This document shows positions 1,253-26,954 of a stretch of DNA of 50,369 bases, in pieces; the stretch's first letter is position 1, and each line of letters starts with the position of its first letter. The translations under genes and the position numbers were made by a program. This DNA comes from Deltaproteobacteria bacterium. Its GTDB lineage: Bacteria > Myxococcota > Myxococcia > SLRQ01. Below the pieces are notes generated by a model. It ran no database searches, was not told the DNA's origin, and saw only the letters and a list, made by a program, of their open reading frames with translations. The stretch covers positions 1 through 50,369 of the forward strand of contig SLRQ01000100.1 of NCBI GenBank assembly GCA_007130885.1, read 5' to 3'.

Positions 1253-1685
1253 GTTCTAACTCCAATAGACTTACGAAGCTGTTCGGTCTAATCATATCAG
1301 CAAAATGCACCCGGGTGTCCGCGAGCCCACTGACCGTCTTTCGAGGGCGTTCGGCCGGAGTGCCTATTCGGCCGTTCCCCTCGAGCCTTCAGTCTCGATC
1401 ATAAACGCTGCCGGACGAACGCAACGAAACTATGGCTCGTTGGCTCAACGAGAAGCCTCGGTCGTTCGACAGGAGAGACCGGACGGGGCTGGCGGGCAGC
1501 GCTGACACATGTGTCTGTTCGGCACATACCCTTGACGCCTACTCAAGCCGACATCGGTGGATGACACGCGCCAAAGGCCACCGGATGGCCCTGATTAGCC
1601 GCATCTCCGGAAGGACGCGCCGGCCTGGCACGACTCATGCGTTCAAGCATGGCAGGCCCGGCACCAAGTCCCCTCTTCGCTGCTG

Positions 1686-2259: not shown

Positions 2260-2736
2260 ATGAGCCATCGAGTCATCGACGTTCGCGGGAAGCACCACCG
2301 GCCACGGCACGAAAGTGCCGGGCGTGGCATGAACGGCTACAAGCGCATGCGCCGAGCGATACTCGCCCAAGCCCACGTCCTTGTCTACAATGACGAATCC
2401 GGCCACTCCGCTCACGTCGCCAGCGGCCTCTCGCGGCTCGGCACACGAACCGTGGTCGTTCACACACCGCTCGAGGCGGTAGTCACCCTGCAAAACGAGT
2501 CCGATCCTGTGCACGCGGCCTTCATTCCGCTCGATTCCTCCAACTTCGACATGGCGGCCTTCTGCGCCTTCTTGAGGGATGCCCACCCGCGGGTTCGGAG
2601 AGTAGCCTTCGCCACGGGAAGTACGCGCCAAAACGGCACGGTCCTCGCCTGCGCCCCCCACTGCGAGCGGGTACTCTGGACCCCGCGGGATAGAGGCGCT
2701 CTCGAAGACGCGCTCGATGCCCTTGGTCCGAGCTAA
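2260..2736 (+). CDS. hypothetical protein, possibly a degenerate receiver (REC)-like fold
   Basis: The ORF lies 35 nt after SAS-1 and has a strong RBS (aaaggagga) 8 nt upstream of the ATG. Its alternating hydrophobic beta/alpha pattern (HVLVYNDE ... FIPLDSS ... AFATGST) is weakly reminiscent of CheY-like domains. It has no recognisable catalytic motif. Confidence 0.45.
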   Translation: MSHRVIDVRGKHHRPRHESAGRGMNGYKRMRRAILAQAHVLVYNDESGHSAHVASGLSRLGTRTVVVHTPLEAVVTLQNESDPVHAAFIPLDSSNFDMAAFCAFLRDAHPRVRRVAFATGSTRQNGTVLACAPHCERVLWTPRDRGALEDALDALGPS

Positions 2737-8011: not shown

Positions 8012-8446
8012 CGGCTCCGGACCCCACGGGGCGGCGAGATGTCGCGACGTCAGAACGCGGTGGCCATGGCTGGAGAAACCCAAGCCGCACAAGACCTCCA
8101 CCCCGTCCTGTCCCCGGTAACCGGTTTCTTTTTCCTGGCTCGACCGATTGCGTCCTGACCGTTTTCAGAAGTATTCGGCCGCATACGCCCAAAAACACGA
8201 TCGAGCACAGCAACAAAAAGATATCACTCGGGTCGTGTGGGTTGGTTCTTGTTAGGTGCGGCTTCGGTCCTCTTTACTCAAGAATCGGAACGCCGAACCT
8301 GTACCCGGGGTTCGGCACACCCCGAGATCGAGGTCAGACCCCCACAGTGAACAAAGGGCCGAACTGTAGCGAATCAGCGCGCTGTGGACATCGGCCGAGT
8401 CTTCGGACCCGACGAGGGCAGCAGCAGGGAGCATATCTCTTTTGAA

Positions 8447-8900
8447 CGCGTACCGACCATGTAAAACACTGTCTCCGTAGCCATGCGTAAAACCTCTTTC
8501 GAATCGCTGCTGTACTCCTCCGCTGTGTCGAAGACGGCCGCGACCAACTCCCCTACCGAAACGACCCTGAGCGTGTCTGCGCCCATTTCATCCTCCTTTA
8601 GGACGCCGTAGCCAGAGTTGCGCCGCGGCTTTAGATAGCTGAATCAACTCAACGCCTTTGAAGCTACTTCGTCAGTTCATCTATTTGGCGTTTACTTGTT
8701 AGGCTTCGGAATGTTGGTGCGGTCGAAATTTCCCGATGTCTTGTGTCTCGAGTTTCCCTTGATGCCTGTGGCCCCTCGAGCCTCCTCCAACGCGATTGGA
8801 GATACATGCGTCGCTGAATCCGAAGCCTTGACGGTTTGATCGGCTTCCATCATGGCGTTGCGCATTTGCTCGGTGAGTGTGGTGAGATTGCCCGGCGAAT
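8447..8900. repeat. copy 1 of a ~450-bp duplicated segment (3' end of the SPFH gene plus ~245 bp downstream)
   Basis: It is ~90% identical to 13111-13446, starting at cgcgtaccgaccatgtaaaacac and ending inside the SPFH coding sequence at ...gagattgcccggcgaat. Copy 2 lacks ~125 bp that encode the SPFH C-terminal tail. Confidence 0.85.
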
Positions 8901-9741
8901 GTGGAATCAGGATCGCATTGGTTCGCGACGATGCACCGATCTCCTTGAGCATGTCGAAGTACTGCGTCATTAGCACCAGGTTCATTACGTCCTTGGCCGT
9001 CGTTCCGGGCACCGATTTTCGAAACTCATCCACCGAATCGCGGAGGCCCGCTACAATAGCCTGGCGTTGATCGGCAATGCCGCGACCCTGGAGGGCCTTG
9101 CTTTGGGCCTCGCCCTCGGCAGACTTGACCTTCAGAATCCGATCGGCCTCGCCTCTTTCAGTGGCCGCTACCCTCATCCGCTGCGCCGCGTTGATCTCAT
9201 TCATCGACTCCTTCACCTTGGCATCGGGATCAATGTCCGTGACCAGTGCCTTGAGGATTCCGTAGCCGAACCCTTCCATTACCTGAGAAAGCTCGCTTTT
9301 CACGATGTCGGCGATGTCGTCCTTCTTCTCGAATACTTCGTCGAGCTTGATCTTGGGAACCTGGGCTCGCACCACATCGAAAACGAATGAAGTAATCTGG
9401 CGATTTGCGTTTTCGAGTTTGTAGAACGCGTCGTAGACATTCTCCGGCAAGACGAAATACTGAACCGCGACGACCATTCGGACGAACACGTTATCTTCTG
9501 TCTTGGTCTCGATCTCGACGTCAAGTTGCTGGACGCGCAGATTGACGCGACCCACCACCTTTTCGATGAAGGGAATCTTGACGCCGATGCCTGGCTCTTC
9601 CTGCCGAACAAACTTACCGAGGCGCTGAACTATGGCCGTGGTTCGTTGCTCCACCGTAAAAAATGTCGATGACAGCAGCGCTATCGCCCCGATCCCCAAA
9701 AGGCCTATCCCGAAAACATAACTAAAAAGTTGGGCTTCCAT
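8692..9741 (-). CDS. SPFH/band-7 (stomatin/prohibitin/HflKC-like) membrane protein
   Basis: It has an N-terminal TM helix (FGIGLLGIGAIALLSS) and then an SPFH core (TTAIVQRLGKFVR...IPFIEKV...QQLDVEIETKTEDNVFVRMVVAVQYFV). A coiled-coil follows (EADRILKVKSAEGEAQSKALQGRG). The start at 9741 has an upstream RBS (aggaaaaaa); the ORF-track start at 9927 is probably too long. Confidence 0.85.
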   Translation of the reverse strand: MEAQLFSYVFGIGLLGIGAIALLSSTFFTVEQRTTAIVQRLGKFVRQEEPGIGVKIPFIEKVVGRVNLRVQQLDVEIETKTEDNVFVRMVVAVQYFVLPENVYDAFYKLENANRQITSFVFDVVRAQVPKIKLDEVFEKKDDIADIVKSELSQVMEGFGYGILKALVTDIDPDAKVKESMNEINAAQRMRVAATERGEADRILKVKSAEGEAQSKALQGRGIADQRQAIVAGLRDSVDEFRKSVPGTTAKDVMNLVLMTQYFDMLKEIGASSRTNAILIPHSPGNLTTLTEQMRNAMMEADQTVKASDSATHVSPIALEEARGATGIKGNSRHKTSGNFDRTNIPKPNK

Positions 9742-10159
9742 ATTATTATTTTTTCCTCTGGGCCGCGGTTTTCGTCCCATTATCAGGTTGTCTTGTCTCC
9801 GCTGGGGACCATGGAATGTAAAGGACACCAGCGAATCGTTCTTTCGATCCAGACAGTCTATCTGCAAGTTGCGATCCAAGAGCATAAACGCGGCAATTGG
9901 AGCCTTTGCGCTGCCCCACAGGCTCACCCCCCTCGCGCATCAAGTCAAAATGAACGGCATTGCCCCCATGTTGATTGGGCGCGTTCCTGCCGGATCGGAC
10001 CTCAAGTGGCCGTCAAGTGGCTGAGTTCACACCATTTCGGAATGTGGCTCGAATCCTGCTTTGGCAGGCTTCGGACCCAATCAACGATGCCATCAAGGAC
10101 AAAATATTGAAAACGACATGGTTTGGGCCACTAACACTTACGAAACTCTGGGAGACGAA

Positions 10160-10672
10160 ATGATTCGAAGACTATTGATGACCCTGGTGATGGCAGTCGC
10201 CCTCTTCTCGACCGCTGGCGAAGCTCATGCCGGATCCTTGATGCGTACGTCGGGCAGCATCGGGATCGGGTTAGGTCAGGGTTACGCAAGTGGCCTTTCA
10301 GGAAAGTACGTCATGGCGGACATGATGGCGGTTCAGGCCACTGTAGGTACCCATGCCTTTGGCCGGCACCACTACTGGCACCACGACCAGCGGCAGGACG
10401 GTATCTCCGTTGGTGCAGACCTCTTGTTCTTGATGCCCATCATTCACTCCGCCGAGCACTTCGCGCTGGGATGGAACCTGGGGTTCGGCCCGGGCGTATC
10501 GCTTTGGAACTCGGGTATAGGTATGGCTGTGGAAGCCGTGGCCGGCCTCGAGATGAACCTCAAGGTCATCCCCCTCGACATCGTGCTCGAGTATCGTCCC
10601 GGCCTTGGCATCCTGCCTGAGATCGGGCTTGGCCTCGGCAACTTCGGGGCCCACATCCGATTCTACTTCTAG
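10160..10672 (+). CDS. small outer-membrane beta-barrel protein (OmpW/OmpA-barrel-like), signal peptide
   Basis: It has a signal peptide (MIRRLLMTLVMAVALFSTAGEAHA), Gly/aromatic-rich alternating strands and a C-terminal aromatic ending ...HIRFYF that matches the OMP beta-signal. Confidence 0.65.
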   Translation: MIRRLLMTLVMAVALFSTAGEAHAGSLMRTSGSIGIGLGQGYASGLSGKYVMADMMAVQATVGTHAFGRHHYWHHDQRQDGISVGADLLFLMPIIHSAEHFALGWNLGFGPGVSLWNSGIGMAVEAVAGLEMNLKVIPLDIVLEYRPGLGILPEIGLGLGNFGAHIRFYF

Positions 10673-11744: not shown

Positions 11745-12947
11745 TTACTGCGCGGGCGCCACGATCGTGCTGGCATCGATATCGACCGCGGTCTGCGACA
11801 GGATTCTCCCGTCCAACGACGCTCCCGTCTCCAGAGTGGCCGAGGTCTGCGTGAGGATGATTCCCTCGAAATGTGCCGTGGTGCCGATCTCCACCTTGCC
11901 GGCAACCTGCCAAAAGACATTCTTGGCCAAGGCGCCTCCGGTCAGGAATATATCCGTCGCACCAGCCATGGTGAGGTCCTGGGCGATCTGGAAGATCCAG
12001 ACGTCGGTGGAGCTTCCGTCCAGCGTCACATCAGTGGGGATCAGCAGACCGGTGCCCCATTGGTAGACGCCGGGCGCGAGGGTCAGGCCACCGATGTCGC
12101 CCGCCCCGAGCTCGGTGATGTCGGGAGCACGACTCGCGGCATCCGTGAAGGCCGTCTCCATATCGCTGACGGCCGTGGTCAGATTGGACGGCGTGGGTAC
12201 CGCGTAATCGGACGCGTAGATGCTTCCGGTCACCTGAGGCGAGGTCGAGAACGTCTCTGTGGAATCGGCGGTCAACGAGAACCCCGTGATGTAGGTGGCA
12301 GAGGCCGGCGAGATGCCGATATCGCCCGTGATGGCGGAAGTGGGCACGGTCGAGATGCCGCTCTTGGCGAGGATGACGTAGTCACCGGCGGTACCTAGAT
12401 TGACGGGCTCGCCCAGCGCGTAGTCGTTACCGGTGGTGAACTCCCAGACGAAGTCGGCCTCGAGCTCGCCGCCGTCGGCGCTCGTGACACCAGTGGTCAC
12501 AGTCACGATATATGTAGTGTCTTCATCCAAGTGCTGGGCCGGCCAGAACACCGCCGTCGAATCCGCGTAGATGTAGCTTCCCTCGACGGCCACCCCTGAA
12601 TTTTCGGAGGTTACCCAGAGGGTGTCGGCCGTGAATGAGCCTGGCGCCATCGACTGGCTGAACGTGACTTGGACGCTTGTGTTGAGGTGCACGTCCAATG
12701 CGCCGTCGAGGGGATGATTCGAGGTGACCTCGGGTGGCACGCCGTCGGTGCCGTTTCCGTTGTCGGTGCCGTTTCCGTTGTCGGTGCCGTTTCCGTTGTC
12801 GGTGTCATTTCCGTTGTCGGTGTCATTTCCGTTGTCGGTGCCGTTTCCGTCATCAAGGCCGTTTCCGTCATCGGGGCCGCATGCAATGGAAGAGGTGAGT
12901 AGAAGAAGCGCGACAGTCGTCGCGAGTATGCTGAATGTCCTTTTCAT
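11745..12947 (-). CDS. lipoprotein with a Big_5 (SbsA-Ig-like) domain and a DUF3494 ice-binding-protein-like beta-helix domain
   Basis: It has a lipobox (LLTSSIACGP). It has a DNGNGT hexapeptide tandem repeat. A Big_5-like segment follows (PPEVTSNHPLDGALDVHLNTSVQVTFSQSM...WEFTTG). The C-terminal domain closely matches the IBP/DUF3494 family (AGDYVILAKSGISTVPTSAITGDIGISPA...IFWQVAGKVEIGTTAHFEGIIL). Confidence 0.75.
   Translation of the reverse strand: MKRTFSILATTVALLLLTSSIACGPDDGNGLDDGNGTDNGNDTDNGNDTDNGNGTDNGNGTDNGNGTDGVPPEVTSNHPLDGALDVHLNTSVQVTFSQSMAPGSFTADTLWVTSENSGVAVEGSYIYADSTAVFWPAQHLDEDTTYIVTVTTGVTSADGGELEADFVWEFTTGNDYALGEPVNLGTAGDYVILAKSGISTVPTSAITGDIGISPASATYITGFSLTADSTETFSTSPQVTGSIYASDYAVPTPSNLTTAVSDMETAFTDAASRAPDITELGAGDIGGLTLAPGVYQWGTGLLIPTDVTLDGSSTDVWIFQIAQDLTMAGATDIFLTGGALAKNVFWQVAGKVEIGTTAHFEGIILTQTSATLETGASLDGRILSQTAVDIDASTIVAPAQ
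12745..12885. repeat. 18-bp coding tandem repeat (about 8 units) encoding (D-N-G-N-[G/D]-T)n
   Basis: The unit ggtgccgtttccgttgtc is iterated with minor variants (gtgtcattt...). It lies inside the IBP-like lipoprotein gene and is in frame. Confidence 0.85.
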
Positions 12948-13110
12948 AATTCTGTCCTTGATGAGGGTATCGGTGATTAGATCTGAAGCATGCTAAGGCA
13001 GGATTCGAGCCACATTTTGAAATGGTATGAATTCAGGCGCTTGGCGCCCGACTCGGAGGGAACGCGCAGGAAACTGCATGACAACGACCTGGCTAAGCCA
13101 TCATTTTGGT

Positions 13111-13446
13111 CGCGTACCGACCATGTAAAACACCTCTCCGTAGCCATGCGTAAAACCTCTTTCGAATCGTTGCTGTACTCCTACGCTGTGTCGAAGACGG
13201 CCGCGACCAACTCCTCCACCGAAACGACCCTGAGCGTGTCTGCGCGCATTTCATCCTGCTTTAGGACGCCGTAGCCAGAGCTGCGCCAAAGCTTTAAGGT
13301 AGCTGACTCAACTCAACGCCTTTGAAGCTAGTTCGTCAGTTCATCTATTTGGCGCCTCGCTGAATCCAAAGCCTTGACGGTTTGATCGGCTTCCATCATG
13401 GCGTTGCGCATTTGCTCGGTGAGTGTGGTGAGATTGCCCGGCGAAT
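13111..13446. repeat. copy 2 of the duplicated segment, including a truncated SPFH 3' remnant (coding-homologous part ~13357-13446, minus strand)
   Basis: It aligns with 8447-8900 with an internal ~125-bp deletion. The SPFH-homologous part encodes only ~30 C-terminal codons (..LTEQMRNAMMEADQTVKA..) with no start codon, so it is a gene remnant. Confidence 0.8.
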
Positions 13447-13700: not shown

Positions 13701-14069
13701 TTATCTATTCAGCTTTATGACGACTTCCTCGACATCTCCCCAGGCCTTCTTGAAGCTATCGCCCAACATGGTCTTCTTCTGGCCGGAAGCAGTCTTGAGT
13801 TCGTCGAATTGGGACTGAGCGGCATCAAACTTCGCCTTAAACTCGTCCAGTAATTTACGATAGTCGTCCTTCGCGGCGGCACCCGCATTTTTAGCCTTTT
13901 CTGCTAGGTCATCGATCTGTGCAGCCCACCGCTCGAGTTGCGATTCCATCTTCCCGACATTTGTTTCGTTCGTATCCACGACATCCTCCTCTTTCCAAGG
14001 TGCGGTTGAGGCACTGCAAACCATGGGCCAAAACAGGAGAGTGAGGGCGAACAGGCTTTCTACTCGCAT
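13701..14069 (-). CDS. secreted coiled-coil protein, hypothetical
   Basis: It has a signal peptide (LFALTLLFWPMVCSAS), then a Lys/Glu/Ala-rich helical region (LAEKAKNAGAAAKDDYRKLLDEFKAKFDAAQSQFDELK). Confidence 0.65.
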   Translation of the reverse strand: MRVESLFALTLLFWPMVCSASTAPWKEEDVVDTNETNVGKMESQLERWAAQIDDLAEKAKNAGAAAKDDYRKLLDEFKAKFDAAQSQFDELKTASGQKKTMLGDSFKKAWGDVEEVVIKLNR

Positions 14070-14263
14070 TCCGGGTTAGCTCTTTGGTGGACCAACATTT
14101 CCGGTGGCTCTCTCATCCACTGTCTTTTCTCTCCTTCGTAGCCCACTGAATGAGCGGAGTTCTTGTTGGACGGCATCTGCTCTGACCACATCGAGTCGGC
14201 CGTTAGGGGTTGTCCATTCCATCGAAATGACGCAGGCTGCATTCAAATCGAAGGGGAACAGTT

Positions 14264-15928
14264 ATGCGCGTCGAAGATCTGCACCACAAGGAGTTGCTGG
14301 AATTGGACCCGGAAGGGGGCGTGATCCGATTCGCGGGGCAACGCGCCCTTCTTATTGACGCCGTGGCTATGGGGCTTCTTAGGCAGTACCTAGTTGACAA
14401 CTTTGGCCTGACCGCGGCTCGCGCGGTGCTGACCCAGTTCGGGTTCGCCCATGGATGGCGGATGGCGACGGCCATGAGAGATGAGTTCAAGTGGTCCCAA
14501 AAGGGAGATTGGCTACGTGCGGGCTCTCATATCTCCACCCTTGGAGGCCTCTTTCTCGTCCAGCCCGGCAGTGAGAACATCCTCACGAATAAGGGGGCTA
14601 TGCTGCTCGCATCCTACGAGGCGGAGCAGCATCTACTGCACTTCGGGCGCTCAGATTCGCCCGTGTGCTGGACGATTTGCGGGCTGATGAGCGGTTACGT
14701 CAGTCAAACCGCCGGTAAGGAGATATTTGTCCTCGAAGATCGCTGCCTGGGACAGGGTCACGCGGCGTGCCACATCCTGGGGCGCACGCGCCAGAAATGG
14801 GGTGAAGAACGGGCCGAGGATCTGAGCTTCTTCGAGCAGGGGCGCCTCAAGGAGTGCCTCGATGTCTCCCTCGCTCGGGTCATGGACACCTTGAAGGCGG
14901 CGGAGGTCAAGCTCCAGGGACAACGTCGGGCACTCGTACGTGCAGTTCGTGACGTGGAGGATCCACTGGGACTCGTTGCCAAAAGCCCGAAGATGAGGGG
15001 CATTGTGGATCTGGCGCAGCGCGTGGCCAAGGTCGATGCCTCGGTACTCATTACCGGCGAAAGCGGAGTGGGAAAAGAGCGAATCGCGCGACTGGTTCAC
15101 GACGAGTCGACCCGTGCCGCCGGTTCGTTCGTCGCCGTCAACTGCGGCGCCATCAGCGAGACGCTGTTCGAAAGTGAGCTCTTCGGGCACGCACGTGGTG
15201 CATTCACTGGTGCGGAGTCGGACCGTCCCGGACTCTTCGAGGCGGCCAACCATGGAACCCTGCTTCTGGACGAGATTGGAGAGGTCTCTCCAGGCATGCA
15301 GGTCAAGCTCCTGCGCGTGCTTCAAGAGCGAGAGATTCGGCGAGTCGGGGAGAACAAGAGCCGACCGGTGAATATACGGGTTCTCGCCGCCACCAACCGT
15401 AACCTGGCCCACGGGGTCGCCGAAGGCACCTTTCGGCAAGATCTCTATTACCGCATCAAGGTCGTAGAGCTATTCGTTCCCCCACTTCGCGATCGCAGGG
15501 AGGATATCTTGCCTCTTGCCCGGCTGATGCTTGCAGACGCCGCGCTTCGGATGGATCGCAAGATATCGGGTCTTACCCCGAGCGCCGCCGATCAGCTCCT
15601 GCGTTACGATTGGCCCGGTAACGTACGAGAGTTGGAGAACACCATGGAGCGCGCCGTCGCGCTCGCTAGAGGAAGTCGCGTGGATCTCGAGGATCTGCCC
15701 GATGAGGTTCGGCAAGCGTTTCAAAAACCCGTAGTTCGTGATGGCACCGTACAACCGCTTGACGAGATTGAAAAAGACTACATCCTTGCGGTGCTGGAAA
15801 TGAACGATGGGAACCAGACGCGCACAGCCCGACAGCTCGGAATAGGCTCGGCCACTCTTTACCGAAAACTCAAGAAGTTTGGCTTCACCGGACGTGCCCG
15901 GATTGCCGGAGCGGACCGCGCACGATGA
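14264..15928 (+). CDS. sigma-54-dependent transcriptional activator (enhancer-binding protein) with an N-terminal XylR-N/V4R-type sensor domain
   Basis: It has an AAA+ sigma-54 interaction domain: Walker A GESGVGKE, the GAFTGA motif, Walker B LLLDEIGE, and the R-finger region RQDLYYRI. It has a C-terminal Fis-type HTH ([18 protein letters not shown]). The N-terminal region resembles DmpR/XylR-family sensor domains. Confidence 0.9.
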
Positions 15929-16236
15929 ATTCGGAGGAATGAGGCCGGCCGAAACCCCTTCTCGACTTCCGATCCGCGGCACATCCGCTTGTACGTCTTG
16001 CGACCCAGCGGAGGATTCGACCCGAGGCACCGAGCAGCGCATGCTAACGGCACGCCTTCGCCAACCGCGAATCTGACAGCATCTCCGGCACCAGATCGGC
16101 GGCCACCTCCACTGCCTCGCTCCGCCTGCCGGGAATAGCTCACGTTGAAAGCTTGGAAGAACATTTTGATTGCACGTCCAAGTGACCGAACCGTTCCCCA
16201 ATGCGTAACGCTCTGTATTTGCGCCACAATCTTGTC

Positions 16237-16252
16237 TGGCACGCAATCTGCT
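16237..16252 (+). promoter_or_regulatory. candidate sigma-54 (-24/-12) promoter
   Basis: The sequence TGGCACgcaatcTGCt has the exact GG-N10-GC spacing and a perfect -24 element, matching the TGGCAC-N5-TTGCA consensus. It is 300 bp downstream of the EBP gene and ~140 bp upstream of the small-ORF/pirin/SAS-2 cluster. Confidence 0.6.
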
Positions 16253-16390
16253 TTCAGTTTGATGGCTAGCGTTGAGGCTCAAGCTCGCGCTTGCCTGGTT
16301 ACCGACGCCCAATTTCCGTTGCCAAGGGCGGTGGGCACACTCAGCCAGACAAAACGCCGTTACTTCGTAGGGATTATTGGAGGATGAGAC

Positions 16391-16615
16391 ATGAAGCAGG
16401 TCGAAAAGGCAGGAGGCTGTCCCTTCCAATGCAAGCTCCGCGATATCATCGACATCTTCGGGCTCCAGGGCCTTCATGTCGACCCATCCAAACCCGTCGA
16501 TCCAATCACAATCGCAAGCATCGAAGGCACGTGTCGATTTATTGTGTCGTCTGCTTCCGCGTTTCGTCGAACGGCTACTCGTAGACGCCCCGGACTTGCG
16601 AGAAATACGAGCTGA
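16391..16615 (+). CDS. hypothetical small protein (74 aa)
   Basis: It has a strong RBS (ggagga, 6 nt before the ATG). Its stop overlaps the pirin start region. It has no known motif and could be a leader or coupled ORF. Confidence 0.35.
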   Translation: MKQVEKAGGCPFQCKLRDIIDIFGLQGLHVDPSKPVDPITIASIEGTCRFIVSSASAFRRTATRRRPGLARNTS

Positions 16616-17355
16616 TGATCAAGCTTCTTCGCAATAGCCAGCGCCTCCATGTGAAACAAGGCCGGCAAGACATCTGGAGCTCCTGCATCGATGCCTTCGG
16701 TTTCCTGGTCGCCTTCGATGAGTTGCGTCTTCCGAAAGGTGACAGCACCGAGCCCCATTGCGACGACGAAACGGAGTTGGTCACGTACGTCTACAAAGGA
16801 GCTCTCTCGCAGGAGGACACCACGGGGAAATCGGGTGTGGTTCACGCTGGCGAGTTCCAGTGCATGTCCACAGGCGCCCGCATCCGGCATATAGAAACGA
16901 GTGTGTCGCGATCCGACTGGGTGCATTTCTTTCGGATTTCCCTGCGGCCCTCGCAGTTGGGACTCGCACCTGGTCACGAGCAAGCGCACTTCACGGCTGG
17001 ACAGCGCCGCAACGTGTTGTGCGTCGTTGCATCACCTGATGGCCGAAAGGAGTCCCTGCGAATCCAACAAAACGCACTCATCTATTCGTCCATTCTCGAT
17101 CCCGGACACCACTTCGTCCACGAACTCGAACCAAAACGAAGCGCCTGGCTACATATGATCTACGGCGAGGCAACACTGAATGACATCGTCCTCACAACGG
17201 GCGACGGGGTCGGGGTTTCGAGCGAACGCTCGCTCTCACTCACGGTCCACGAGACAACCGAAATCCTCTTGGTCGACCTCGGACCGTTGAAGTCGTGCCC
17301 TTGCGAAAGGGTTTCTTGCCCGGAAGATGCACGTCTACAACAGGGAGAGCACTGA
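16615..17355 (+). CDS. pirin-family bicupin protein
   Basis: It has the pirin N-terminal cupin motif pattern (EPHCDDETELVTYVYKGALSQEDTTGKSGVVHAGEFQCMSTGARIRHIE, compare pirin HPHRGFETVTYVLEG...G.V.W.TAG.G..H.E). A second cupin-like half follows. Its stop TGA overlaps the SAS-2 ATG (TGATG). Confidence 0.75.
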   Translation: MIKLLRNSQRLHVKQGRQDIWSSCIDAFGFLVAFDELRLPKGDSTEPHCDDETELVTYVYKGALSQEDTTGKSGVVHAGEFQCMSTGARIRHIETSVSRSDWVHFFRISLRPSQLGLAPGHEQAHFTAGQRRNVLCVVASPDGRKESLRIQQNALIYSSILDPGHHFVHELEPKRSAWLHMIYGEATLNDIVLTTGDGVGVSSERSLSLTVHETTEILLVDLGPLKSCPCERVSCPEDARLQQGEH

Positions 17356-17963
17356 TGCAGACTCAGAAGACTAACAAGGCGCGAAATGGCTCGAACTCAA
17401 GTATTTCAATGCCGGCAGAGCTGGAAACCATTCCCGCCATTGGCCATCTTCAACGAGCCACGGTCTATCTCGAACGCGGAGATGTCGGCCAAGAGCACGC
17501 ACTTCTTCACATGATGGAAGAAATCCAGGCTCTTGCGTGCCCCTTGAACCCCGATATCCAGGTGTATGGCCGCATCAAGAGTACTGTATCGACTTCGCAA
17601 AAGATGCTGGATAAGTTCCTCGACGCCCATGAAATACTCGACGTCATTGGCATCCGCGCGATCACCCGACATACGCGCGACTGCTATCGACTGATTCGCG
17701 GCATTCATTCCGCGTTCCCAGTCTTGCCACGCGAATACGACGACTACATCGCAACGCCCAAGCGCAACGGATACCGCTCAATACACACAACCGTGGTCAG
17801 CCCCAGTGGTCTTCCCGTCGAGATCCAGGTTCGAACCCAAACAATGCACGAAACCTGTGAACGAGGTTCCGCGGCGCACTCCGTGTACAAAAGAAATCGG
17901 GTTGCTTGGTTTCCACTATTTCCGAGCCCACCTCATCGCCTACGCAGTGCCTTAGCCTTCTGA
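17355..17963 (+). CDS. small alarmone synthetase SAS-2 (RelA/SpoT synthetase-domain-only protein)
   Basis: It has the motifs RIKSTVSTSQKM, DVIGIRAI, DCY, YIATPKRNGYRSIHTTV and PVEIQVRT. It is ~60-70% identical to SAS-1 across the catalytic core. It is translationally coupled to the pirin gene. Confidence 0.85.
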   Translation: MQTQKTNKARNGSNSSISMPAELETIPAIGHLQRATVYLERGDVGQEHALLHMMEEIQALACPLNPDIQVYGRIKSTVSTSQKMLDKFLDAHEILDVIGIRAITRHTRDCYRLIRGIHSAFPVLPREYDDYIATPKRNGYRSIHTTVVSPSGLPVEIQVRTQTMHETCERGSAAHSVYKRNRVAWFPLFPSPPHRLRSALAF

Positions 17964-17972
17964 TAGAGGTAG

Positions 17973-18140
17973 AGCCCCGTGCATCTGGCTTTCGGCTTCC
18001 CACAGGTCTTCGAGGGAGCGCTGGCGCACGAGCGGATCGTAACGGGCAGGCTCAATGATCTCGTCGATCTGGCCCTGGAGGAGCGAGACCACGCCAGCCA
18101 GAGCTTCCTTCGGTGGTTCGTGGACGAGCAGGTCGAGGAA
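17973..18140 (+). pseudogene. internal fragment of a ferritin-family gene (about 55 codons)
   Basis: The frame that begins right after the SAS-2 stop reads ...ALAHERIVTGRLNDLVDLALEERDHASQSFLRWFVDEQVEE. This closely parallels the ferritin helix C-D region ([39 protein letters not shown]). There is no N-terminal half and no C-terminal continuation. Confidence 0.5.
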
Positions 18141-18187
18141 AATGCCACCGCGACCCAGACCGAGAGATACTTTTCGAATAACCCCAT
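18140..18187 (-). pseudogene. acr3: N-terminal remnant of an ACR3-family arsenite efflux gene (about 16 codons)
   Basis: The minus-strand ORF begins MGLFEKYLSVWVAVAF. This fits the conserved ACR3 N-terminus ([SL]F[LE]xRYL[TS][LV]W[IV]...A). It lies 60 nt after arsC in the canonical arsR-arsC-acr3 order. The frame then degenerates into antisense of the ferritin fragment. Confidence 0.45.
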
Positions 18188-18248
18188 TCCTTACCGGGCT
18201 GGGTATCCTGTCCTTTTGATTGCTGCTCGACGGCTTGTTCCTGTTCGG

Positions 18249-18674
18249 TCACTTGCTTGTCTCCTCCATAAGAAGCGCCTTCACTCGAGCACGAATCTCA
18301 TCTCGGACTGCACGAAACTTGCCGGTGATCTCCTCCTCGGTTCCGGTAGCCTTTGCCGGATCGTCGATGGGCCAGTGGACACGTCTGGTTCCGGGCGACA
18401 AAACGGGACAGCTCTCGTCCGCGTGGCCGCAGACGGTGACTACGATATTCGCATCGGAGAGCATCTCGTCGGTCACTTGGGTAGACTCCTGATTCGAGAT
18501 GTCGACGCCGTCCTCGGCCATTGTGGCTATTGCACGGGGGTTTTTGCCGTGTGCCTCGAGTCCCGCCGAAGCGACTCTGACTCGGTGACCGCCGAGGTAG
18601 CGGGTGTACCCCTCCGCCATCTGCGATCGGCAGGAGTTTCCAGTGCAAAGATACAGAATGCTTGGCCTTGTCAT
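18249..18674 (-). CDS. arsC: arsenate reductase, LMW-PTP (thioredoxin-coupled) type
   Basis: It has the P-loop CTGNSCRSQMAEG at the N-terminus and downstream Cys residues (VTVCGHADESCP) typical of the Cys-X-Cys relay. It is 141 aa. Confidence 0.9.
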   Translation of the reverse strand: MTRPSILYLCTGNSCRSQMAEGYTRYLGGHRVRVASAGLEAHGKNPRAIATMAEDGVDISNQESTQVTDEMLSDANIVVTVCGHADESCPVLSPGTRRVHWPIDDPAKATGTEEEITGKFRAVRDEIRARVKALLMEETSK

Positions 18675-21741: not shown

Positions 21742-24700
21742 TCAGTCCTCGGCCACGCACTCATGGTCCTCGCAAACCATCTCGCCGCAGTGCTCATCCT
21801 CGACGCACTCCACGCAAAGACCCGATTGCTCATGGCAGTAAGCCAAGCCACTGTCGAAACAGTCCGCGTTCGAAAGGCACGCAGGCCAGCATAGGTCGTG
21901 CTCCGACATGTCGCCGAAGCCCTGACAAACATAGCCCTCGGCGGTTCGGCAGTCGTCCGCGTCATCGCAGGTCGCCACGCAGTAGGAGAGGCCTGATTCC
22001 GCGTCGACCATCAGACATTCGCTACCCAGCGGACAGGTCTGGGAGGTGCCCGCCGAGCAATCGATGACGCAGTACCCACCGAGCCAGTCCTCGAGACACT
22101 TTCCGTACTCGTATCCTCCGCAGTCCCACTGGCCCTCGCACGCGTCTCCCACGCTGCCTTCCCCCGCTGCTCCGCCGGCACAGACGCCTCCGCCCTGACC
22201 GTCGTCGACACAGATGTAACCATCTCGGACGCAATCCTCATGTGAGCCACACGATCGCATACAAAGGTTATCATGGGCCGGAGAACAGACGGCTTCTCTC
22301 CCGCAATCGGCGTCGGCGACGCAGGCGCGCGTGCAGTAACCGTCGAGCCACCCGAAGTCTTGCTGAGTGCCGCAGAAGCCAACACATTCGTCGTCTTCCT
22401 CGCAAGGCTCGCCATCCAGCGCCGTGAGATCAACACAAGCGTTGTGATCACACACCTTGTCGCCGCAATGGGCGTCGTCGGTGCACTCCACGCAAAGGCC
22501 CAAGTCGACGGCACAGTACGGCGATTGCTCGGACGGGCAATCCTCATTGGATTGGCAGGGCGGCACGCAGAGGCCAGCATCGCACACATACCCATCCTCC
22601 GTCCTGCAGTCAGCGCTTTCCTCACACGAAGCGATGCACTGGTATATGTCCAGCTCTCCGAGACGGTGGCACTCGCCGCCGTCGGGGCAGGGCTCGTCAG
22701 CCTCGGGATCGCAGTAGACCGAGCAGTAACCGAAGGGCCAATCGCCTTTTTGACAGAAGCCGTCCTCCCGTCCAGCGCAATCCCAGTAGTTCTCGCAGGC
22801 GGCCCCAAGCGCCCCATCACCGGTGGCTCCACTGACGCACACGTTTAGCCCCGTACCGTCATCGGCGCACACATAGCCTTCGGCCCTGCAATCAGAGTCG
22901 CTCTCGCATGAGATGAAGCAGTTGTCGTTGTAACCTTGCGAGCAGACGGCTCCCTCGCTGCAGTCCTCATCGCTGTGACACGACCGGCTGCAGTATCCAT
23001 CGCGCCAGCCCCGTTCGTCCTCGAATATGCAGTATCCGTCGCAGTCCACGTCGCTCGCGCAGGTTTCGCCATCATCGCCACCGGTTTCCACGCAAGTCCA
23101 ATTCACGCATTCAAGTGCCTCCCCGCAGTGATGCGACTCGGTGCACTCGACACAAAGACCCGACAGGACCTCACAGTGGGGCAGGTCCGCGAAGCAATCG
23201 TGCTGCGAGGCGCACGCGGGTCGGCAGAAGCCGACCTCGTTCAAAGGGTCGAGCGTTTGGCACACGTAACCCTCGTCGGAGCGGCAGTCGGCCTCGGACA
23301 CACAGGCGGCCACGCAATGCTCGAGGCCGTCGTCCAGGGGCAGACACTCACTACCGTCGGGGCAGTCCTGAGCGCCTCCCGCCGAGCAATCAATCATGCA
23401 GTAGCCGCCCGGCCAATGCGGAAAGCACAGGCCGTGCTCCTCGCCGCCGCACTCCCATTGCGCGGCGCAGGCATCCCCGGGTGCCCCGCCGCCGGTGGCG
23501 CCGCCGACACATACACGACGACCATGGCCGTCATCGGCGCAGACATAGCCCTCGGCCCTACAATCAGCCGAGGTCTCGCAAGCACGGAGGCAGTGGTCAT
23601 CGTAGCCCGGCGAGCATATGGCTCCGGGGCTACAGTCCCAATCGCTCAGACAAGCCCGCGTGCAGTGACCATCTCGCCACCCAATTGACTGCTCGGTCAA
23701 GCAGTAGCCGGCGCAATCCTCGTCCCACATGCATGCCGCTCCATCGGGGTTGCCCACCTCAACGCAGACATTGTCCCGACACGTGCCCTCGCAGTGCGCG
23801 TCCTCCAGACACTCGACACAGAGCCCGTCATCTTCCTTGCAATACGGCATATGCTCCGCGAAAGCACAGTCGTGGTCCGAACCGCATGCGGGCTTGCACA
23901 TGCCGATTGCTAGGTGGCCGCCCAGTGTCTCGCAAACATAAGACTCCTCGGCCCTGCAATCCTCTATGTCGCCGCAACCGGTGATACAGAAATGTCCAGA
24001 CCCGGGGGCCATACCCTCGACCGGCATACACTCGGCTCCATCAGGACACGACAGGCTGTCCTCCGGGTCGCATTCCAGTGAGCAAAAGCCTCCCGGCCAG
24101 TCATCGATACAGAGTCCCCGCTCTCTTCCCGCGCAGTCCCAGTTGCCCTGGCAGCCTTCTCCCACCGCTGCCTCACCCGCGGCTCCTCGCACACACCCCT
24201 GTCCGCCGAAGCCGTCATCGCCGCATACGTAGCCTGCCCGGCATTCCTGATCCGTCTCGCAGGAGACCAAGCAATGGCCGTCCGGTCCTCCAGCGCAAAA
24301 GGCCCCCACGCTGCACTCATCGTTCTCCTGGCATGGCCCCGTGCAGTAGCCGGCCTCCCATCCCATGTGCAGCGGAGCGGTCATGCAGATGCCGCCGGCA
24401 CAGTCGTCGCCGTCCACGCAGGGCTCGCCATCGGAGAAGCCCGCCTTCACACACTCGTTGTCCAGACAGAGATGCCGGTGCGGACACGTCCCGCATCTCT
24501 CCGACTTCCCGCAGCCTACGTCCACCGTTCCGCACTCCGCACCTACCTCAACGCAATCAAACGGGACGCACTCACAGAAGTTGTCAACGCATTCATGCTG
24601 GTACGGGCAATCGTCAAATTGGACCTCACCACCGCAGCCGTCGTCGACGGTGCCGCACTCCGCCTCGACGTCCTCGCTGCCGAGCGGCACGCAAACGCAA

Positions 24701-25293
24701 GTGTTCTCGATGCACTGATGTTGAGCCGGGCACGACTCGCACTCCGCCCGTCCTCCGCAGCCATCGGGGATCGTGCCACACTCGGCCTCGAGATCCTCAC
24801 ACCGCAGCGGCAGGCACTCACATACGTTATCGCGGCATTCGTGTCGGGAGGGACACTCATCACATTCGACCTCGTCCCCGCAGCCGTCATCGATCGTGCC
24901 GCACTGGGCCCCCACGTCGTCGCATCCGAGCGGCACGCATACACAAACGTTCTCGCGGCACTCGTGTTGAGCCGGACACTCCTCGCAAGTAGCGGTCCCG
25001 CCGCAGCCGTCGTCAATGATTCCGCACTCGGCCTCGACGTCAGCACACGTCAAGGGTGTGCACTCCTCGACGCAGAGCTTCCCGTCACAGACCTCTCCCT
25101 CCTGGCAAGGAGGACATGACACCGTCGCTCCGCAACCGTCGGGATGTGTGCCGCACTCCGCTCCTAGGCTCTCACACGTGGCGGGCTCACACACATCGGA
25201 CGGGCCCTCGTCACCACCGCACCGGGCGAAAGCTCCCAGCATCATGGCCGCGACCATCGCGGAACCCCAACGATTGACCTTCACCATATTCAT
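21742..25293 (-). CDS. large secreted cysteine-rich modular repeat protein (1183 aa)
   Basis: It has a signal/lipobox (AAMMLGAFARCGGDEG). It has ~8 tandem ~38-aa modules C.PLTC.D..AECG.IDDGCGG...C.ECP..H.C..N.C. Four ~190-aa super-repeats follow, each containing GWRDGYCTR.C..D.DC..GAVCS.GYDD.C...C..D.DCRAEGYVCADDG and CVEC.ED.HC motifs. It has more than 150 Cys. Confidence 0.85.
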   Translation of the reverse strand: MNMVKVNRWGSAMVAAMMLGAFARCGGDEGPSDVCEPATCESLGAECGTHPDGCGATVSCPPCQEGEVCDGKLCVEECTPLTCADVEAECGIIDDGCGGTATCEECPAQHECRENVCVCVPLGCDDVGAQCGTIDDGCGDEVECDECPSRHECRDNVCECLPLRCEDLEAECGTIPDGCGGRAECESCPAQHQCIENTCVCVPLGSEDVEAECGTVDDGCGGEVQFDDCPYQHECVDNFCECVPFDCVEVGAECGTVDVGCGKSERCGTCPHRHLCLDNECVKAGFSDGEPCVDGDDCAGGICMTAPLHMGWEAGYCTGPCQENDECSVGAFCAGGPDGHCLVSCETDQECRAGYVCGDDGFGGQGCVRGAAGEAAVGEGCQGNWDCAGRERGLCIDDWPGGFCSLECDPEDSLSCPDGAECMPVEGMAPGSGHFCITGCGDIEDCRAEESYVCETLGGHLAIGMCKPACGSDHDCAFAEHMPYCKEDDGLCVECLEDAHCEGTCRDNVCVEVGNPDGAACMWDEDCAGYCLTEQSIGWRDGHCTRACLSDWDCSPGAICSPGYDDHCLRACETSADCRAEGYVCADDGHGRRVCVGGATGGGAPGDACAAQWECGGEEHGLCFPHWPGGYCMIDCSAGGAQDCPDGSECLPLDDGLEHCVAACVSEADCRSDEGYVCQTLDPLNEVGFCRPACASQHDCFADLPHCEVLSGLCVECTESHHCGEALECVNWTCVETGGDDGETCASDVDCDGYCIFEDERGWRDGYCSRSCHSDEDCSEGAVCSQGYNDNCFISCESDSDCRAEGYVCADDGTGLNVCVSGATGDGALGAACENYWDCAGREDGFCQKGDWPFGYCSVYCDPEADEPCPDGGECHRLGELDIYQCIASCEESADCRTEDGYVCDAGLCVPPCQSNEDCPSEQSPYCAVDLGLCVECTDDAHCGDKVCDHNACVDLTALDGEPCEEDDECVGFCGTQQDFGWLDGYCTRACVADADCGREAVCSPAHDNLCMRSCGSHEDCVRDGYICVDDGQGGGVCAGGAAGEGSVGDACEGQWDCGGYEYGKCLEDWLGGYCVIDCSAGTSQTCPLGSECLMVDAESGLSYCVATCDDADDCRTAEGYVCQGFGDMSEHDLCWPACLSNADCFDSGLAYCHEQSGLCVECVEDEHCGEMVCEDHECVAED

Positions 25294-25471
25294 CTCCTCG
25301 AGGAAAGTGAGTCCTTACTCCTCGCGCTAGGGGCGCTGCTTGCCGGCGCGGTCTTTCATGAATCCCGGCCTGGCGACCCCCGGATCGGCTAGCCCGCGTG
25401 CGTCACCGCTCCCGAGCGAAAACGTAGTAGTCCAAGTCATCATTTTTGCGGCTGGCCCCAAAGCAGACATT

Positions 25472-26950
25472 TCATCGACGAACCTCGAATGAGACCCTGC
25501 GGTTGATGGCGCGGCCGAACTCGGTGGCCGGCGCCGCCGGCTGGTCGATCCCTTCCGCCCTGACGTCCAGGCGCTCACGCTCCACGCCTGCCTCAATCAA
25601 CGCCTCCAGGACGACATGGGCCCGCTCGAGGCTCAGCTCGCGGTTGAAGTCGGCGGAGCCGCGGTCGTCCGCATGCCCCACGACAGTCGCGCTCACACCC
25701 GAGTCCAGTAGAAGAACGGCCGCCCGCCGGATATCGCGCGCAGCCTCGGCATCCAAGGTCGCATCGCCCGTCCCGAAATGTATCGCCTTTCGCCGCAGCA
25801 TCTCCTCCGCGAACGATGAGCTTTCCAGCGAGCCTTGACGTCGTTCTTCCTCGAGGCGCTCTCGCCTGGCTCGCTCCTCCTCCAGGCGCTCGCGGTTCGC
25901 GGCCAGCTCGGCGGCGGCCTCTCGCAGCGAGCCCTCCAAGGCGGCACGCTCCGCGCGCTCCTCCGCGCGAGTGATCGCCTTTTCCTGCTCGATCATCAGA
26001 AGACAGATTGACGGCTCCATCGTGTCTGGCGCGAATCGGGAGCCCATGCCGATACTCACGAGCCCCCGAACCAAAGGCGTGGGCCCATTGGAGACGGGCG
26101 CTAAGCCGGCTCCGGCCTGGATATGGAGATCGCCCAGGTGGTATCGAGCACCCGCGAGGATCTCCAGTGAGGCACCCCGCCCAGCCGCGGAACCGGTCAA
26201 GCCGGCTACCGAGTGCCGATAGACGGCGTCCGCCATCCAGCGGACGCCCAAGGCGTGGTAGCCGCCGCCCACGCCGACGTGCAGGGTGTCGCCGAGGAGC
26301 TGGTCTCCTATGACCAGCGACCTACCGGTGTCGTACCCGAGTGTCCCGGCGACATCCCATCGCTCCTCCGTGAGGCCCACGGTAGTGGACACCTGGGCCC
26401 TGGCCCTATCCTCGCTGATGCCGCTGTGCTCTTCTCCGGTCGGAGCGAGCACGCCGGCCTGAAGAACCCAACCGACGGGCTCCTGTCCGGCTCCGTCCAT
26501 TAGTAACACTCGCGCACCCAACCGGAGGTCACCCAGCGCGGCGGAGCCGACCGAGCGTCGCGGGAGGTCCGTCCGTTCCACTCCGCCTTGGTACAAGAGT
26601 AGGGGCAGACCGGCGAGAATCTCGAGACGTCGCGTGGGGGACAGCGCGCCTTGAAGGAGCATTCCGCTCCTCGAGGATATCCAATCCACGTTCTCGTTCA
26701 CGCCGTCTCCGCGAACGTCGCCGGTGGCGACCTCGGCGCGGACGACCCGATGCTCGTATCCGAGCAGCGCGGAGAACTCCCAAGACCCGGGTTCCATGAG
26801 CCGCGAGGTGGGCAGCAAAAGCGTGCTACGCGAAGACGGCGCGGCAAGCCTCATGGTGAAAGCGTCAACGCTCTCCGCCGCGGCGGGAAAGGAGACGGCA
26901 ATCATCGAGGACGCCAGGAGGAGCGACGAGATGATACGTGAACGCTTCAT
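25472..26950 (-). CDS. OmpA-family outer-membrane protein: N-terminal beta-barrel-like domain, coiled-coil linker and C-terminal OmpA peptidoglycan-binding domain
   Basis: It has a signal peptide (MKRSRIISSLLLASSMIAVSFPAAA). It has a Glu/Arg coiled-coil (LEEERARRERLEEERRQ). The C-terminal OmpA_C motif is TVVGHADDRGSADFNRELSLERAHVV...NRRVSF. It is the last gene of the operon, 4 nt after the upstream gene's stop. The start could be 26983. Confidence 0.85.
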   Translation of the reverse strand: MKRSRIISSLLLASSMIAVSFPAAAESVDAFTMRLAAPSSRSTLLLPTSRLMEPGSWEFSALLGYEHRVVRAEVATGDVRGDGVNENVDWISSRSGMLLQGALSPTRRLEILAGLPLLLYQGGVERTDLPRRSVGSAALGDLRLGARVLLMDGAGQEPVGWVLQAGVLAPTGEEHSGISEDRARAQVSTTVGLTEERWDVAGTLGYDTGRSLVIGDQLLGDTLHVGVGGGYHALGVRWMADAVYRHSVAGLTGSAAGRGASLEILAGARYHLGDLHIQAGAGLAPVSNGPTPLVRGLVSIGMGSRFAPDTMEPSICLLMIEQEKAITRAEERAERAALEGSLREAAAELAANRERLEEERARRERLEEERRQGSLESSSFAEEMLRRKAIHFGTGDATLDAEAARDIRRAAVLLLDSGVSATVVGHADDRGSADFNRELSLERAHVVLEALIEAGVERERLDVRAEGIDQPAAPATEFGRAINRRVSFEVRR

Positions 26951-26954
26951 TGGG

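Follow-up and report, generated by a model that had tools for sequence, protein, structure and literature searches.

A putative sigma-54 stress regulon under an XylR-type activator includes a pirin/small alarmone synthetase operon

What controls the gene of a stand-alone small alarmone synthetase (SAS) that lies in one operon with a pirin, directly downstream of the gene for a sigma-54 enhancer-binding protein (EBP)? This question is raised by positions 14,264 to 17,963 of contig SLRQ01000100.1 from a Deltaproteobacteria bacterium (GenBank assembly GCA_007130885.1), of which the whole stretch of 50,369 nucleotides was analysed and is referred to here as the window. A sequence-only reading had proposed that the EBP drives the operon from a near-consensus sigma-54 promoter and thereby places the synthesis of (p)ppGpp (guanosine tetra- or pentaphosphate) under sigma-54 control. 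Our analysis supports a wider model, to which we assign a probability of about 0.7: the locus belongs, as one of several operons, to a sigma-54 regulon under the adjacent XylR_N/V4R EBP, and its transcript would yield pirin and SAS and so connect the sensed signal to (p)ppGpp. Coordinates of all features are collected in Table 1.

The gene upstream of the operon had been taken for a XylR/DmpR-like activator with a V4R domain, and its domains and motifs agree with that assignment. Matches to XylR_N (PF06505, 1.7e-24) and V4R (PF02830, 2.2e-08), both above the Pfam cut-offs, are accompanied by Sigma54_activat (PF00158, 3.4e-69), AAA_lid_14 and HTH_8, and the translation contains the GAFTGA loop, the Walker A and B motifs and LLLDEIGE. 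The sensor region matched the structures of PoxR, MopR and DmpR/CapR with E-values of 5.5e-22 to 6.5e-17, and the zinc site is kept: C135, E158, C161 and C169 align to MopR C155, E178, C181 and C189 (Cys-X22-Glu-X2-Cys-X7-Cys). Judged from its sequence, the protein is a genuine EBP of the XylR/DmpR/MopR type. The MopR phenol anchors H106 and W134 are replaced by S91 and L114 in the alignment, and on this ground we rejected the EBP as a phenol sensor. A small-molecule signal is plausible; the sensor domain is 65–83% identical across metagenome-assembled genomes labelled Proteobacteria, Planctomycetota, Acidobacteria and Chitinispirillaceae, which suggests a common, non-xenobiotic cue. A PADLOC run on the EBP gave a domain-level match only, to an RtcR-like AAA+ protein.

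Downstream of the EBP gene, the core motif TGGCACgcaatCTGC / TGGCACGCAATCTGC occupies 16237-16251(+), with GG and GC 12 nt apart, which is the exact −24/−12 spacing that the sequence-only reading had reported. The full site TGGCACGCAATCTGCT (16237-16252) deviates from TGGCAC-N5-TTGCW by one mismatch and keeps the GG/GC register. The earlier statement that it is the only sigma-54 match holds for the exact pattern TGGCAC-N5-YTGC, of which it is the sole instance in the window, but not for looser ones: 13 sigma-54-like sites with at most two mismatches were found, and two more besides the operon promoter have the same type of upstream enhancer (9878(-) and 10045(+)). By itself, the exact pattern is not significant, with 0.23 matches expected per window and at least one match in 23 of 100 shuffles. 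The significance of the promoter therefore lies in its context and conservation rather than in the exact motif.

Both aspects were assessed in related loci, labelled with L-numbers, which were collected via SAS relatives and via pirin relatives (80 metagenome loci). Alignment of their upstream regions revealed a second element, TCATTTTGATtG, 73–76 bp before TGGCAC. In the window, the core of this proximal dyad reads ACATTTTGA (16161-16169), and a perfect CATTTTGAT at 16162 lies 75 bp before TGGCAC. It is one of two tandem dyads 21 bp apart, equivalent to two helical turns, and the pair was also recovered by an independent scan. Position-specific conservation further marked the AAC-N3-CTG-N-AAT block, a possible site for a bending protein. 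A close relative from another sample (L173, 86% identity over the aligned region) keeps the promoter as TGGCACGTAATCTGC; its contig starts downstream of the dyads. No sigma-70-like promoter was found in 15900-18300, and no terminator-like site on the plus strand of 15928-16391. Rfam, in which riboswitches of the 5' leader including those for ppGpp and cyclic di-GMP (c-di-GMP) were sought, gave no match at the gathering threshold over the whole window and a single chance-level match at E below 1 in 15900-18300. Two open reading frames (ORFs) on the minus strand, one of 335 aa (15470-16477) and one of 127 aa that an NCBI record lists as a gene (15859-16242), are probably spurious because they overlap the 3' end of the EBP gene, the enhancer dyads and the promoter. 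We conclude that a conserved, predicted sigma-54-type promoter with its own enhancer precedes the operon.

The complete arrangement was then treated as one composite element (dyad with at most one mismatch, spacer of 72–78 bp, −24/−12 with at most two mismatches), which occurred at 41 sites in the 469 kb of related loci and not once in five shuffles of the whole set. In the logo of 43 non-redundant sites, a pair of TCA-N3-TGA dyads with a 21-bp offset stands out together with the AAC-N3-CTG-N-AAT block and the promoter TGGC.CGaaA..TGC; the distal dyad, 21 bp upstream of the proximal one, has the consensus ttcAa.TtgA. Genes 3' of these sites encode pirin (15), a 104-aa helical protein (6), Band_7/SPFH proteins (5), radical SAM (S-adenosylmethionine) and GGDEF proteins and DUF5670, and the sll1863-like gene type is also among those preceded by the element. 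At looser settings, the window holds three composite sites against 0.4 expected. A same-strand upstream site was present in all eight SAS-family loci at 51–59% identity that had enough upstream sequence (the window, L004, L005, L007, L009, L097, L170 and L171, the last with a weaker site), and absent from L172, a SAS relative at 44%. The motif, whose absence from orthologous loci the sequence-only reading had named as counter-evidence, is present there. As far as these patterns allow a reading, the loci belong to a widespread multi-operon stress regulon run by a conserved XylR-type activator, which we have not found described.

The EBP carries a C-terminal HTH_8 domain of the Fis type, which may bind such dyads; the conserved dyads adjoin EBP genes and precede the regulon promoters. 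In the related loci, EBP relatives are 70–84% identical, compared with 50–67% for the accompanying pirin. Of the 33 loci with enough sequence, 19 have the EBP gene no more than 5 kb upstream of pirin, always in divergent orientation.

In relatives, groES-groEL, a GCS2 glutamate-cysteine ligase and ATP-grasp and M20 peptidase genes were found under the composite element or in the same transcription units (L005:4353-6282, L170:2373-3596 and L007:2577-4974), which is consistent with a broad stress regulon. An ORF of about 62 aa, absent from the window, lies between the sigma-54 promoter and pirin at L150:9782-9970 and likewise in L121, L124, L126, L142, L143, L146-L148, L153, L157 and L162. It has a variable N-terminus and the invariant C-terminus LKNCGDCEPGGFGSTYGFSP(R) / LKNCGDCEPGGFGSTYGFSPR, gave no Pfam or NCBIfam match, and resembles the precursor of a cofactor or of a product akin to ribosomally synthesised and post-translationally modified peptides. 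A further family of small proteins without family match, with the conserved N-terminus M.T..HKTAQLGELVAAAFDEAA.YS.DP.EVSRLAT, recurs in the regulon clusters and often stands right after Band_7 or ahead of pirin (window 8428-8586(-), L004:11738-11947(-), L005:4159-4320, L124:618-890 and others).

The transcript predicted to start at this promoter would cover three ORFs joined by TGATG one-base overlaps at 16615 and 17355. The overlap between pirin and SAS had been described before; it is indeed there, the junction between the small ORF and pirin has the same form, and ORF positions and overlaps bear out pirin and SAS as a coupled operon downstream of the promoter. The description of an alarmone synthetase fused to a cupin does not apply, as these are two separate ORFs that are translationally coupled. 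Nor is the small ORF a protein gene of its own kind: by alignment it is what remains of a radical-SAM gene. Residues 4-39 correspond to 171-206 and residues 25-52 to 296-323 of the radical-SAM protein of L007, of whose 561 residues about 70 are kept with an internal deletion, and it has no family match of its own. GCPFQCKLRD stands in place of GCPFQCEFCD, with loss of the third Cys of CX3CX2C. Two candidate roles were rejected, that of a radical SAM enzyme for want of a complete CX3CX2C core and that of a conserved micro-protein or antitoxin in view of homology to radical-SAM gene segments only. An intact radical-SAM gene precedes pirin in L007, L097, L095, L112 and L170, and the TGATG coupling of the relic to pirin is inherited from this radical-SAM/pirin junction. 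The ORF is also open in L173, with a ratio of nonsynonymous to synonymous substitution rates (dN/dS) of 0.45 over 74 codons in this single sequence pair.

The pirin has more than 786 relatives, many of which carry the Joint Genome Institute name 'redox-sensitive bicupin YhaK'; NCBIfam gave no equivalog match, and the likeness to YhaK is one of annotation only. At the metal-ligand positions, which we presume to be three His and one Glu of the N-terminal cupin, the window protein reads E-P-H ... H-I-E. Among 24 relatives, the His positions are variously occupied (F, R, N, Y, Q), and invariance is confined to the Glu residues. Because the metal-binding histidines vary within the subfamily, the quercetinase-type function suggested earlier is unlikely. 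The protein keeps all family-invariant residues and has a dN/dS of 0.31 against L173 (one pair).

RelA_SpoT is the sole Pfam match in the synthetase encoded by the last ORF, SAS1, which lacks HD, TGS and ACT domains. In PDB, the SAS profile came closest to the synthetase domains of RelA/Rel (1e-47 to 1e-39), E. coli RelA among them, and matched RelP/RelQ far more weakly (about 1e-18); all matches were of these kinds or to related GTP pyrophosphokinases. In SAS1, D96 and E156 fall on Rel_Seq D264 and E323, with EYDD matching the RelA EFDD (EXDD motif), and K136, N138, Y140 and H144 align to K304, N306, Y308 and H312; all six residues of SAS1 are family-invariant. We take Rel_Seq D264 and E323 to be catalytic and K304, N306, Y308 and H312 to bind guanine. 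SAS1 probably makes (p)ppGpp. The family is rare, with 32 matches among 5.8 billion clusters, and about 60 N-terminal residues are unique to it. Against L173, SAS1 has a dN/dS of 0.53 (one pair) and retains all family-invariant residues. When genome contigs were scanned with the SAS alignment, long RelA/SpoT genes at 36–48% identity dominated and no close family members appeared among the matches. For SAS1, PADLOC returned no more than a domain-level candidate (PDC-S33, E 3.1e-16), and a defence-system assignment was rejected as unsupported by such matches.

The window encodes a second synthetase, SAS2. The gene that follows it (2260-2736(+)) has no Pfam match, and its product is 37% identical over 91 aa to a sigma70-region-2-like protein of L005; such a protein accompanies SAS in L005 and L006. 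In L004, an 87-aa ORF after pirin (4591-4854(-)) is homologous only to the N-terminal region of SAS (55–57% to the SAS of L005 and L007, 33% to SAS1) and represents a truncated duplicate or else an N-terminal module retained on its own; the full SAS of that genome lies elsewhere, after Band_7.

Is the EBP, then, dedicated to the synthetase? The gene neighbourhoods speak against this. SAS is the next gene after pirin in 2 of 45 metagenome pirin loci, and because of this low count we regard it as an accessory output, an occasional add-on of the predicted regulon and not a core member. It also occurs without adjacent pirin (L004, L009, L172 and SAS2 of the window). The conserved partner of the EBP is pirin, together with Band_7, the sll1863-like protein and DUF5670. 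The neighbourhood of EBP, pirin and SAS that the sequence-only reading had proposed to look for in other genomes is conserved in its EBP–pirin part and not in the step from pirin to SAS. Its central proposal, an alarmone synthetase under sigma-54/EBP control, stands insofar as SAS lies downstream of a conserved promoter and enhancer, and is to be narrowed insofar as SAS is only an add-on of a wider regulon.

Our working model is as follows. The EBP, activated by a non-phenolic ligand or a stress cue at its Zn-containing V4R domain, would bind both TCA-N3-TGA dyads, which precede the predicted start by about 100 and 120 nt, and from this fixed position would remodel the sigma-54 holoenzyme at TGGCAC-N5-CTGC (16237-16252). 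The resulting mRNA would comprise the radical-SAM relic, the YhaK-like pirin and the RelA-like SAS, translationally coupled, and its induction would raise the level of SAS and hence probably that of (p)ppGpp. SAS may act alongside the SPFH/Band_7 protein, the sll1863-like stress protein and DUF5670, to which the regulon of relatives would add a diguanylate cyclase, B12-radical-SAM enzymes and a sigma-region-2-like protein. Pirin and SAS, made from one message, may also influence each other. The sequence data show the domain identities, the conserved geometry of enhancer and promoter, the gene order with its conservation and the relic nature of the small ORF, whereas the binding of these dyads by this EBP, the kind of signal and the synthesis of (p)ppGpp by SAS are inferred.

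Several observations weigh against this model. The −12 element of the operon promoter is CTGC and not TTGC, rpoN does not lie in the window, and we infer the transcription start, the dependence on rpoN and the binding of the EBP to DNA. The dyads could bind another factor than the EBP, and at SAS2 and the sll1863-like gene the sigma-54-like motifs lack dyads at the canonical position. The radical-SAM and ferritin relics and a pseudogene-bearing duplication might mean that the operon is losing function, and the dN/dS values against L173 (pirin 0.31, SAS 0.53, relic 0.45) indicate moderate constraint only, in one pair. A different explanation is that the −24/−12 match is fortuitous or vestigial and that pirin and SAS, which would owe their transcription to read-through out of the EBP gene or to a promoter not yet recognised, are a decaying remnant of little function. 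Chance alone would yield the exact motif 0.23 times per window, the co-directional EBP gene and the stretch 15928-16391, with no plus-strand terminator-like site, permit read-through, and several relics and the duplication lie in and around the operon. The tripartite architecture of two dyads, 75-bp spacer and −24/−12 is nevertheless intact and recurs at 41 sites in relatives against none in shuffles, the promoter is kept in L173 at 86% overall identity, and pirin and SAS retain every family-invariant residue, so that we consider this explanation quite unlikely.

If the operon is indeed regulated as proposed, the product of SAS may still differ from the one we favour. It could make pGpp or (p)ppApp, or serve a biosynthetic role with the radical-SAM, pirin and GGDEF enzymes, as relatives cluster SAS with two B12-radical-SAM types, GGDEF and the sigma-region-2-like protein, and the N-terminal 60 residues of the family are unique. 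The EXDD motif and the invariance of the residues aligned to the presumed guanine-binding K304, N306, Y308 and H312 of Rel_Seq point instead to the canonical reaction. In addition, SAS was kept in the window while the radical-SAM gene decayed and GGDEF is absent, from which we argue that it works on its own; we rate this alternative as unlikely. Most improbable, in our judgement, is a toxSAS-type toxin–antitoxin or defence pair, in which SAS would act as a growth-arresting toxin (ppApp synthesis or tRNA pyrophosphorylation) neutralised by the overlapping upstream pirin or small ORF. Its outward features would fit, namely a small stand-alone RelA_SpoT protein with a one-base overlap to the upstream gene, a small and patchy family (32 matches), the domain-level match to PDC-S33 at E 3.1e-16, and 30 SAS subfamilies of which few have been tested (Jimmy et al. 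2020). However, the SAS profile is nearest to RelA/Rel (1e-47 to 1e-39, with RelP/RelQ at about 1e-18), and no toxSAS chain (FaRel, PhRel, CapRel) was found in PDB at E up to 1e-3. Pirin belongs to a family some 25 times larger with a distribution of its own, SAS follows it in 2 of 45 loci and occurs in the four cases without adjacent pirin, so no conserved neutralising partner is apparent, and the small ORF is a radical-SAM relic instead of a conserved antitoxin. A dedicated enhancer-dependent promoter is likewise unlike autoregulated toxin–antitoxin modules. A last and more far-reaching idea, which we hold to be very unlikely, is that EBP, pirin, B12-radical-SAM, SAS, GGDEF, the sigma-region-2-like protein and the 62-aa peptide (LKNCGDCEPGGFGSTYGFSPR) form one self-contained signalling system, in which a small molecule derived from a peptide or metabolite, made or modified by radical-SAM and pirin, would be the V4R ligand and (p)ppGpp and c-di-GMP would be outputs of the same enhancer-dependent promoters.

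The regulon model extends to other sites in the window, above all the second enhancer pair, which serves two divergent promoters (Table 1). Orthologues of the Band_7 protein, 81–84% identical, adjoin the EBP in other loci, and the Band_7 genes of L004, L005, L111 and L144 carry the same composite site. For the 14030(-) promoter no canonical dyads were found at 72–78 bp; a degenerate dyad pair beside the EBP start (14221-14250) lies at a non-canonical distance of about 200 nt. L156 has, by eye, a related layout of upstream dyads and promoter at the same gene type (sll1863-like/DUF5670), below the threshold of the composite scan. A duplicated promoter, TGGCTCGAATCCTGCC (13013-12998, minus), stands 65 nt upstream of a Big_5/Ice_binding gene (11745-12947(-)), and Ice_binding genes of L007 also carry the composite site. 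Ahead of the SAS2 promoter no enhancer dyads were found at 72–78 bp. Lacking canonically placed dyads, the sites at 14030(-), 13013(-) and 1626(+) are weaker.

Table 1. Positions of the genes, promoters and enhancer elements in the window, ordered along the contig
Feature	Position	Strand	Evidence or remark
Candidate sigma-54 promoter TGGCACGACTCATGCG ahead of SAS2	1626..1641	+	Matches the TGGCACGA-N3-ATGCG sub-consensus of L103, L143, L146 and L150
SAS2, paralogue of SAS1, ~146 aa	1785..2225	+	RelA_SpoT 120.8 bits; 51% identical to SAS1 (tblastn)
Band_7/SPFH (HflK-like) membrane protein gene	8692..9741	-	Pfam Band_7; NCBIfam HflK-like
Sigma-54-like promoter TGGATCGCAACTTGCA ahead of Band_7	9863..9878	-	74 bp from enhancer
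Second enhancer pair TCAAAATGA-N12-CATGTTGAT, palindromic dyads	9945..9974		Common to two divergent sigma-54 promoters
Sigma-54-like promoter TGGCTCGAATCCTGCT	10045..10060	+	78 bp from enhancer
170-aa protein, signal-peptide-like N-terminus, no family match	10160..10672	+	Follows the 10045 promoter
DUF5670 small membrane protein, 64 aa	13466..13660	-	Pfam (called gene of L002); homologues in the same clusters
sll1863-family stress response protein, 92 aa	13701..13979	-	NCBIfam NF052504, 60.7 bits (cut-off 35)
Candidate sigma-54 promoter TGGCCCATGGTTTGCA ahead of sll1863-like/DUF5670 pair	14015..14030	-	Motif scan
EBP, 554 aa	14264..15928	+	Pfam XylR_N and V4R sensor, AAA+ with GAFTGA, HTH_8
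Distal enhancer dyad TCACGTTGA (TCA-N3-TGA)	16140..16148		43-site logo; independent scan for tandem dyads
Proximal enhancer dyad ACATTTTGATTG, consensus TCATTTTGATtG	16161..16172		75 bp upstream of the −24 element
AAC-N3-CTG-N-AAT block, reads AACGCTCTGTATT	16207..16219	+	Position-specific conservation over 43 sites
Predicted sigma-54 −24/−12 promoter TGGCACgcaatCTGCt	16237..16252	+	TGGCAC-N5-CTGC; predicted start near 16262-16264
Small ORF of 74 codons, remnant of a DUF4070-type, B12-binding radical-SAM gene	16391..16615	+	Alignment to the radical-SAM protein of L007
YhaK-like pirin (bicupin), 246 aa	16615..17355	+	Pfam Pirin PF02678 and Pirin_C_2 PF17954, above cut-offs
SAS1, 202 aa, RelA-like synthetase domain only	17355..17963	+	Pfam RelA_SpoT PF04607, 110.7 bits
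Ferritin gene relic, C-terminal part only	17997..18152	+	Pfam Ferritin, E 4.1e-13, profile positions 81-132 of 142

How far the operon has departed from its relatives can be gauged from two less altered loci. L171, from the same metagenome, has the intact order of divergent EBP, a protein of Arg-Asp (RD) repeats, pirin, SAS, B12-radical-SAM, GGDEF, Band_7 and sll1863-like gene, and L170 has radical-SAM, pirin, SAS, radical-SAM and GGDEF. Compared with these, the window retains a radical-SAM relic, has no GGDEF after SAS, and carries the EBP gene co-directional instead of divergent. The ferritin relic right after the SAS stop suggests that a deletion or an insertion created the right end of the operon; elsewhere, at 48718-49227, a ferritin/Dps-like gene is intact. 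Segmental duplication links 8440-8690 with 13104-13354, 8808-8900 with 13354-13446 and 10008-10119 with 13049-12935 (inverted), and comprises DNA downstream of Band_7, a C-terminal fragment of Band_7 (aa 287-316) and a sigma-54-like promoter. Within the copy, the small gene (~13240-13100, minus) contains an in-frame TAG and is a pseudogene. The window operon is a reduced, rearranged version and one partly decayed arm of the proposed regulon.

Some further features were recorded. The RD-repeat protein of L171 (2016-2570), 184 aa and nearly all Arg-Asp, is encoded between the sigma-54 promoter and pirin. Elsewhere in the window are a lipoprotein with seven TNFR_c6 cysteine-rich repeats and RCC1 repeats (39941-41872(+)), and a run of proteins of 1183–1526 aa without family match together with an OmpA-domain protein (21742-39695(-)). 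Internal repeats seen in the self-comparison of the window are unrelated to the sigma-54 finding.

Is such an arrangement new? The claim that it is not a described one was too strong, since NtrC activates relA of E. coli from a sigma-54 promoter (Brown et al. 2014, PMC4066584). The principle of sigma-54/EBP control of alarmone synthesis is already known because of this precedent, in which a (p)ppGpp synthetase gene is directly transcribed from a sigma-54 promoter under an EBP and a specific stress is thus coupled to the alarmone. There, however, it is the long ribosome-dependent RelA that is controlled, by a two-component response regulator of nitrogen status, whereas the window has a stand-alone synthetase in a pirin operon and a ligand-sensing XylR_N/V4R-type activator with a fixed-geometry enhancer. 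XylR, DmpR, MopR and PoxR share with the EBP the domain order, the Zn site (Cys, Glu, Cys, Cys) and dyads upstream of −24/−12, but in the window the phenol anchors are Ser and Leu, and the targets are stress and second-messenger genes instead of aromatic catabolism. The RelP/RelQ enzymes of Firmicutes are also single-domain synthetases, whose output presumably depends for the most part on transcription that responds to stress; the window SAS differs in its closeness to the RelA/Rel domain, its unique N-terminal extension of about 60 residues and its predicted sigma-54/EBP control. E. coli YhaK has the same two-cupin build of Pirin and Pirin_C_2, in which the canonical 3-His-1-Glu site is not strictly kept, while the window pirin, alike by annotation only, stands in a sigma-54 EBP context with different operon partners. 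Jimmy et al. (2020) make no mention of a pirin, cupin, GGDEF or radical-SAM neighbourhood for SAS, and a literature search on pirin with small alarmone synthetase, V4R with pirin, and SAS with sigma-54 found nothing relevant. What we have not found described is a non-phenolic V4R EBP with a double-dyad fixed-geometry enhancer, a YhaK-like pirin as its core target, and SAS and GGDEF as add-ons.

These findings bear on annotation as well as on signalling. The 'small ORF' of the window is a gene relic and not a micro-protein of its own kind, which calls for caution in annotating such frames. Were the very unlikely self-contained system true, it would represent a previously unknown autoregulatory stress or communication circuit across several phyla. 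Under the regulon model that we prefer, sigma-54 control of (p)ppGpp synthesis would be extended from a single known case, E. coli relA, to stand-alone synthetases, and with a cis-architecture so sharply defined and a sensor so conserved, any one member could be used to find the ligand for all. In some lineages, one stress signal may have been routed to both alarmone and c-di-GMP synthesis by the addition of SAS and GGDEF genes to an existing sigma-54 operon.

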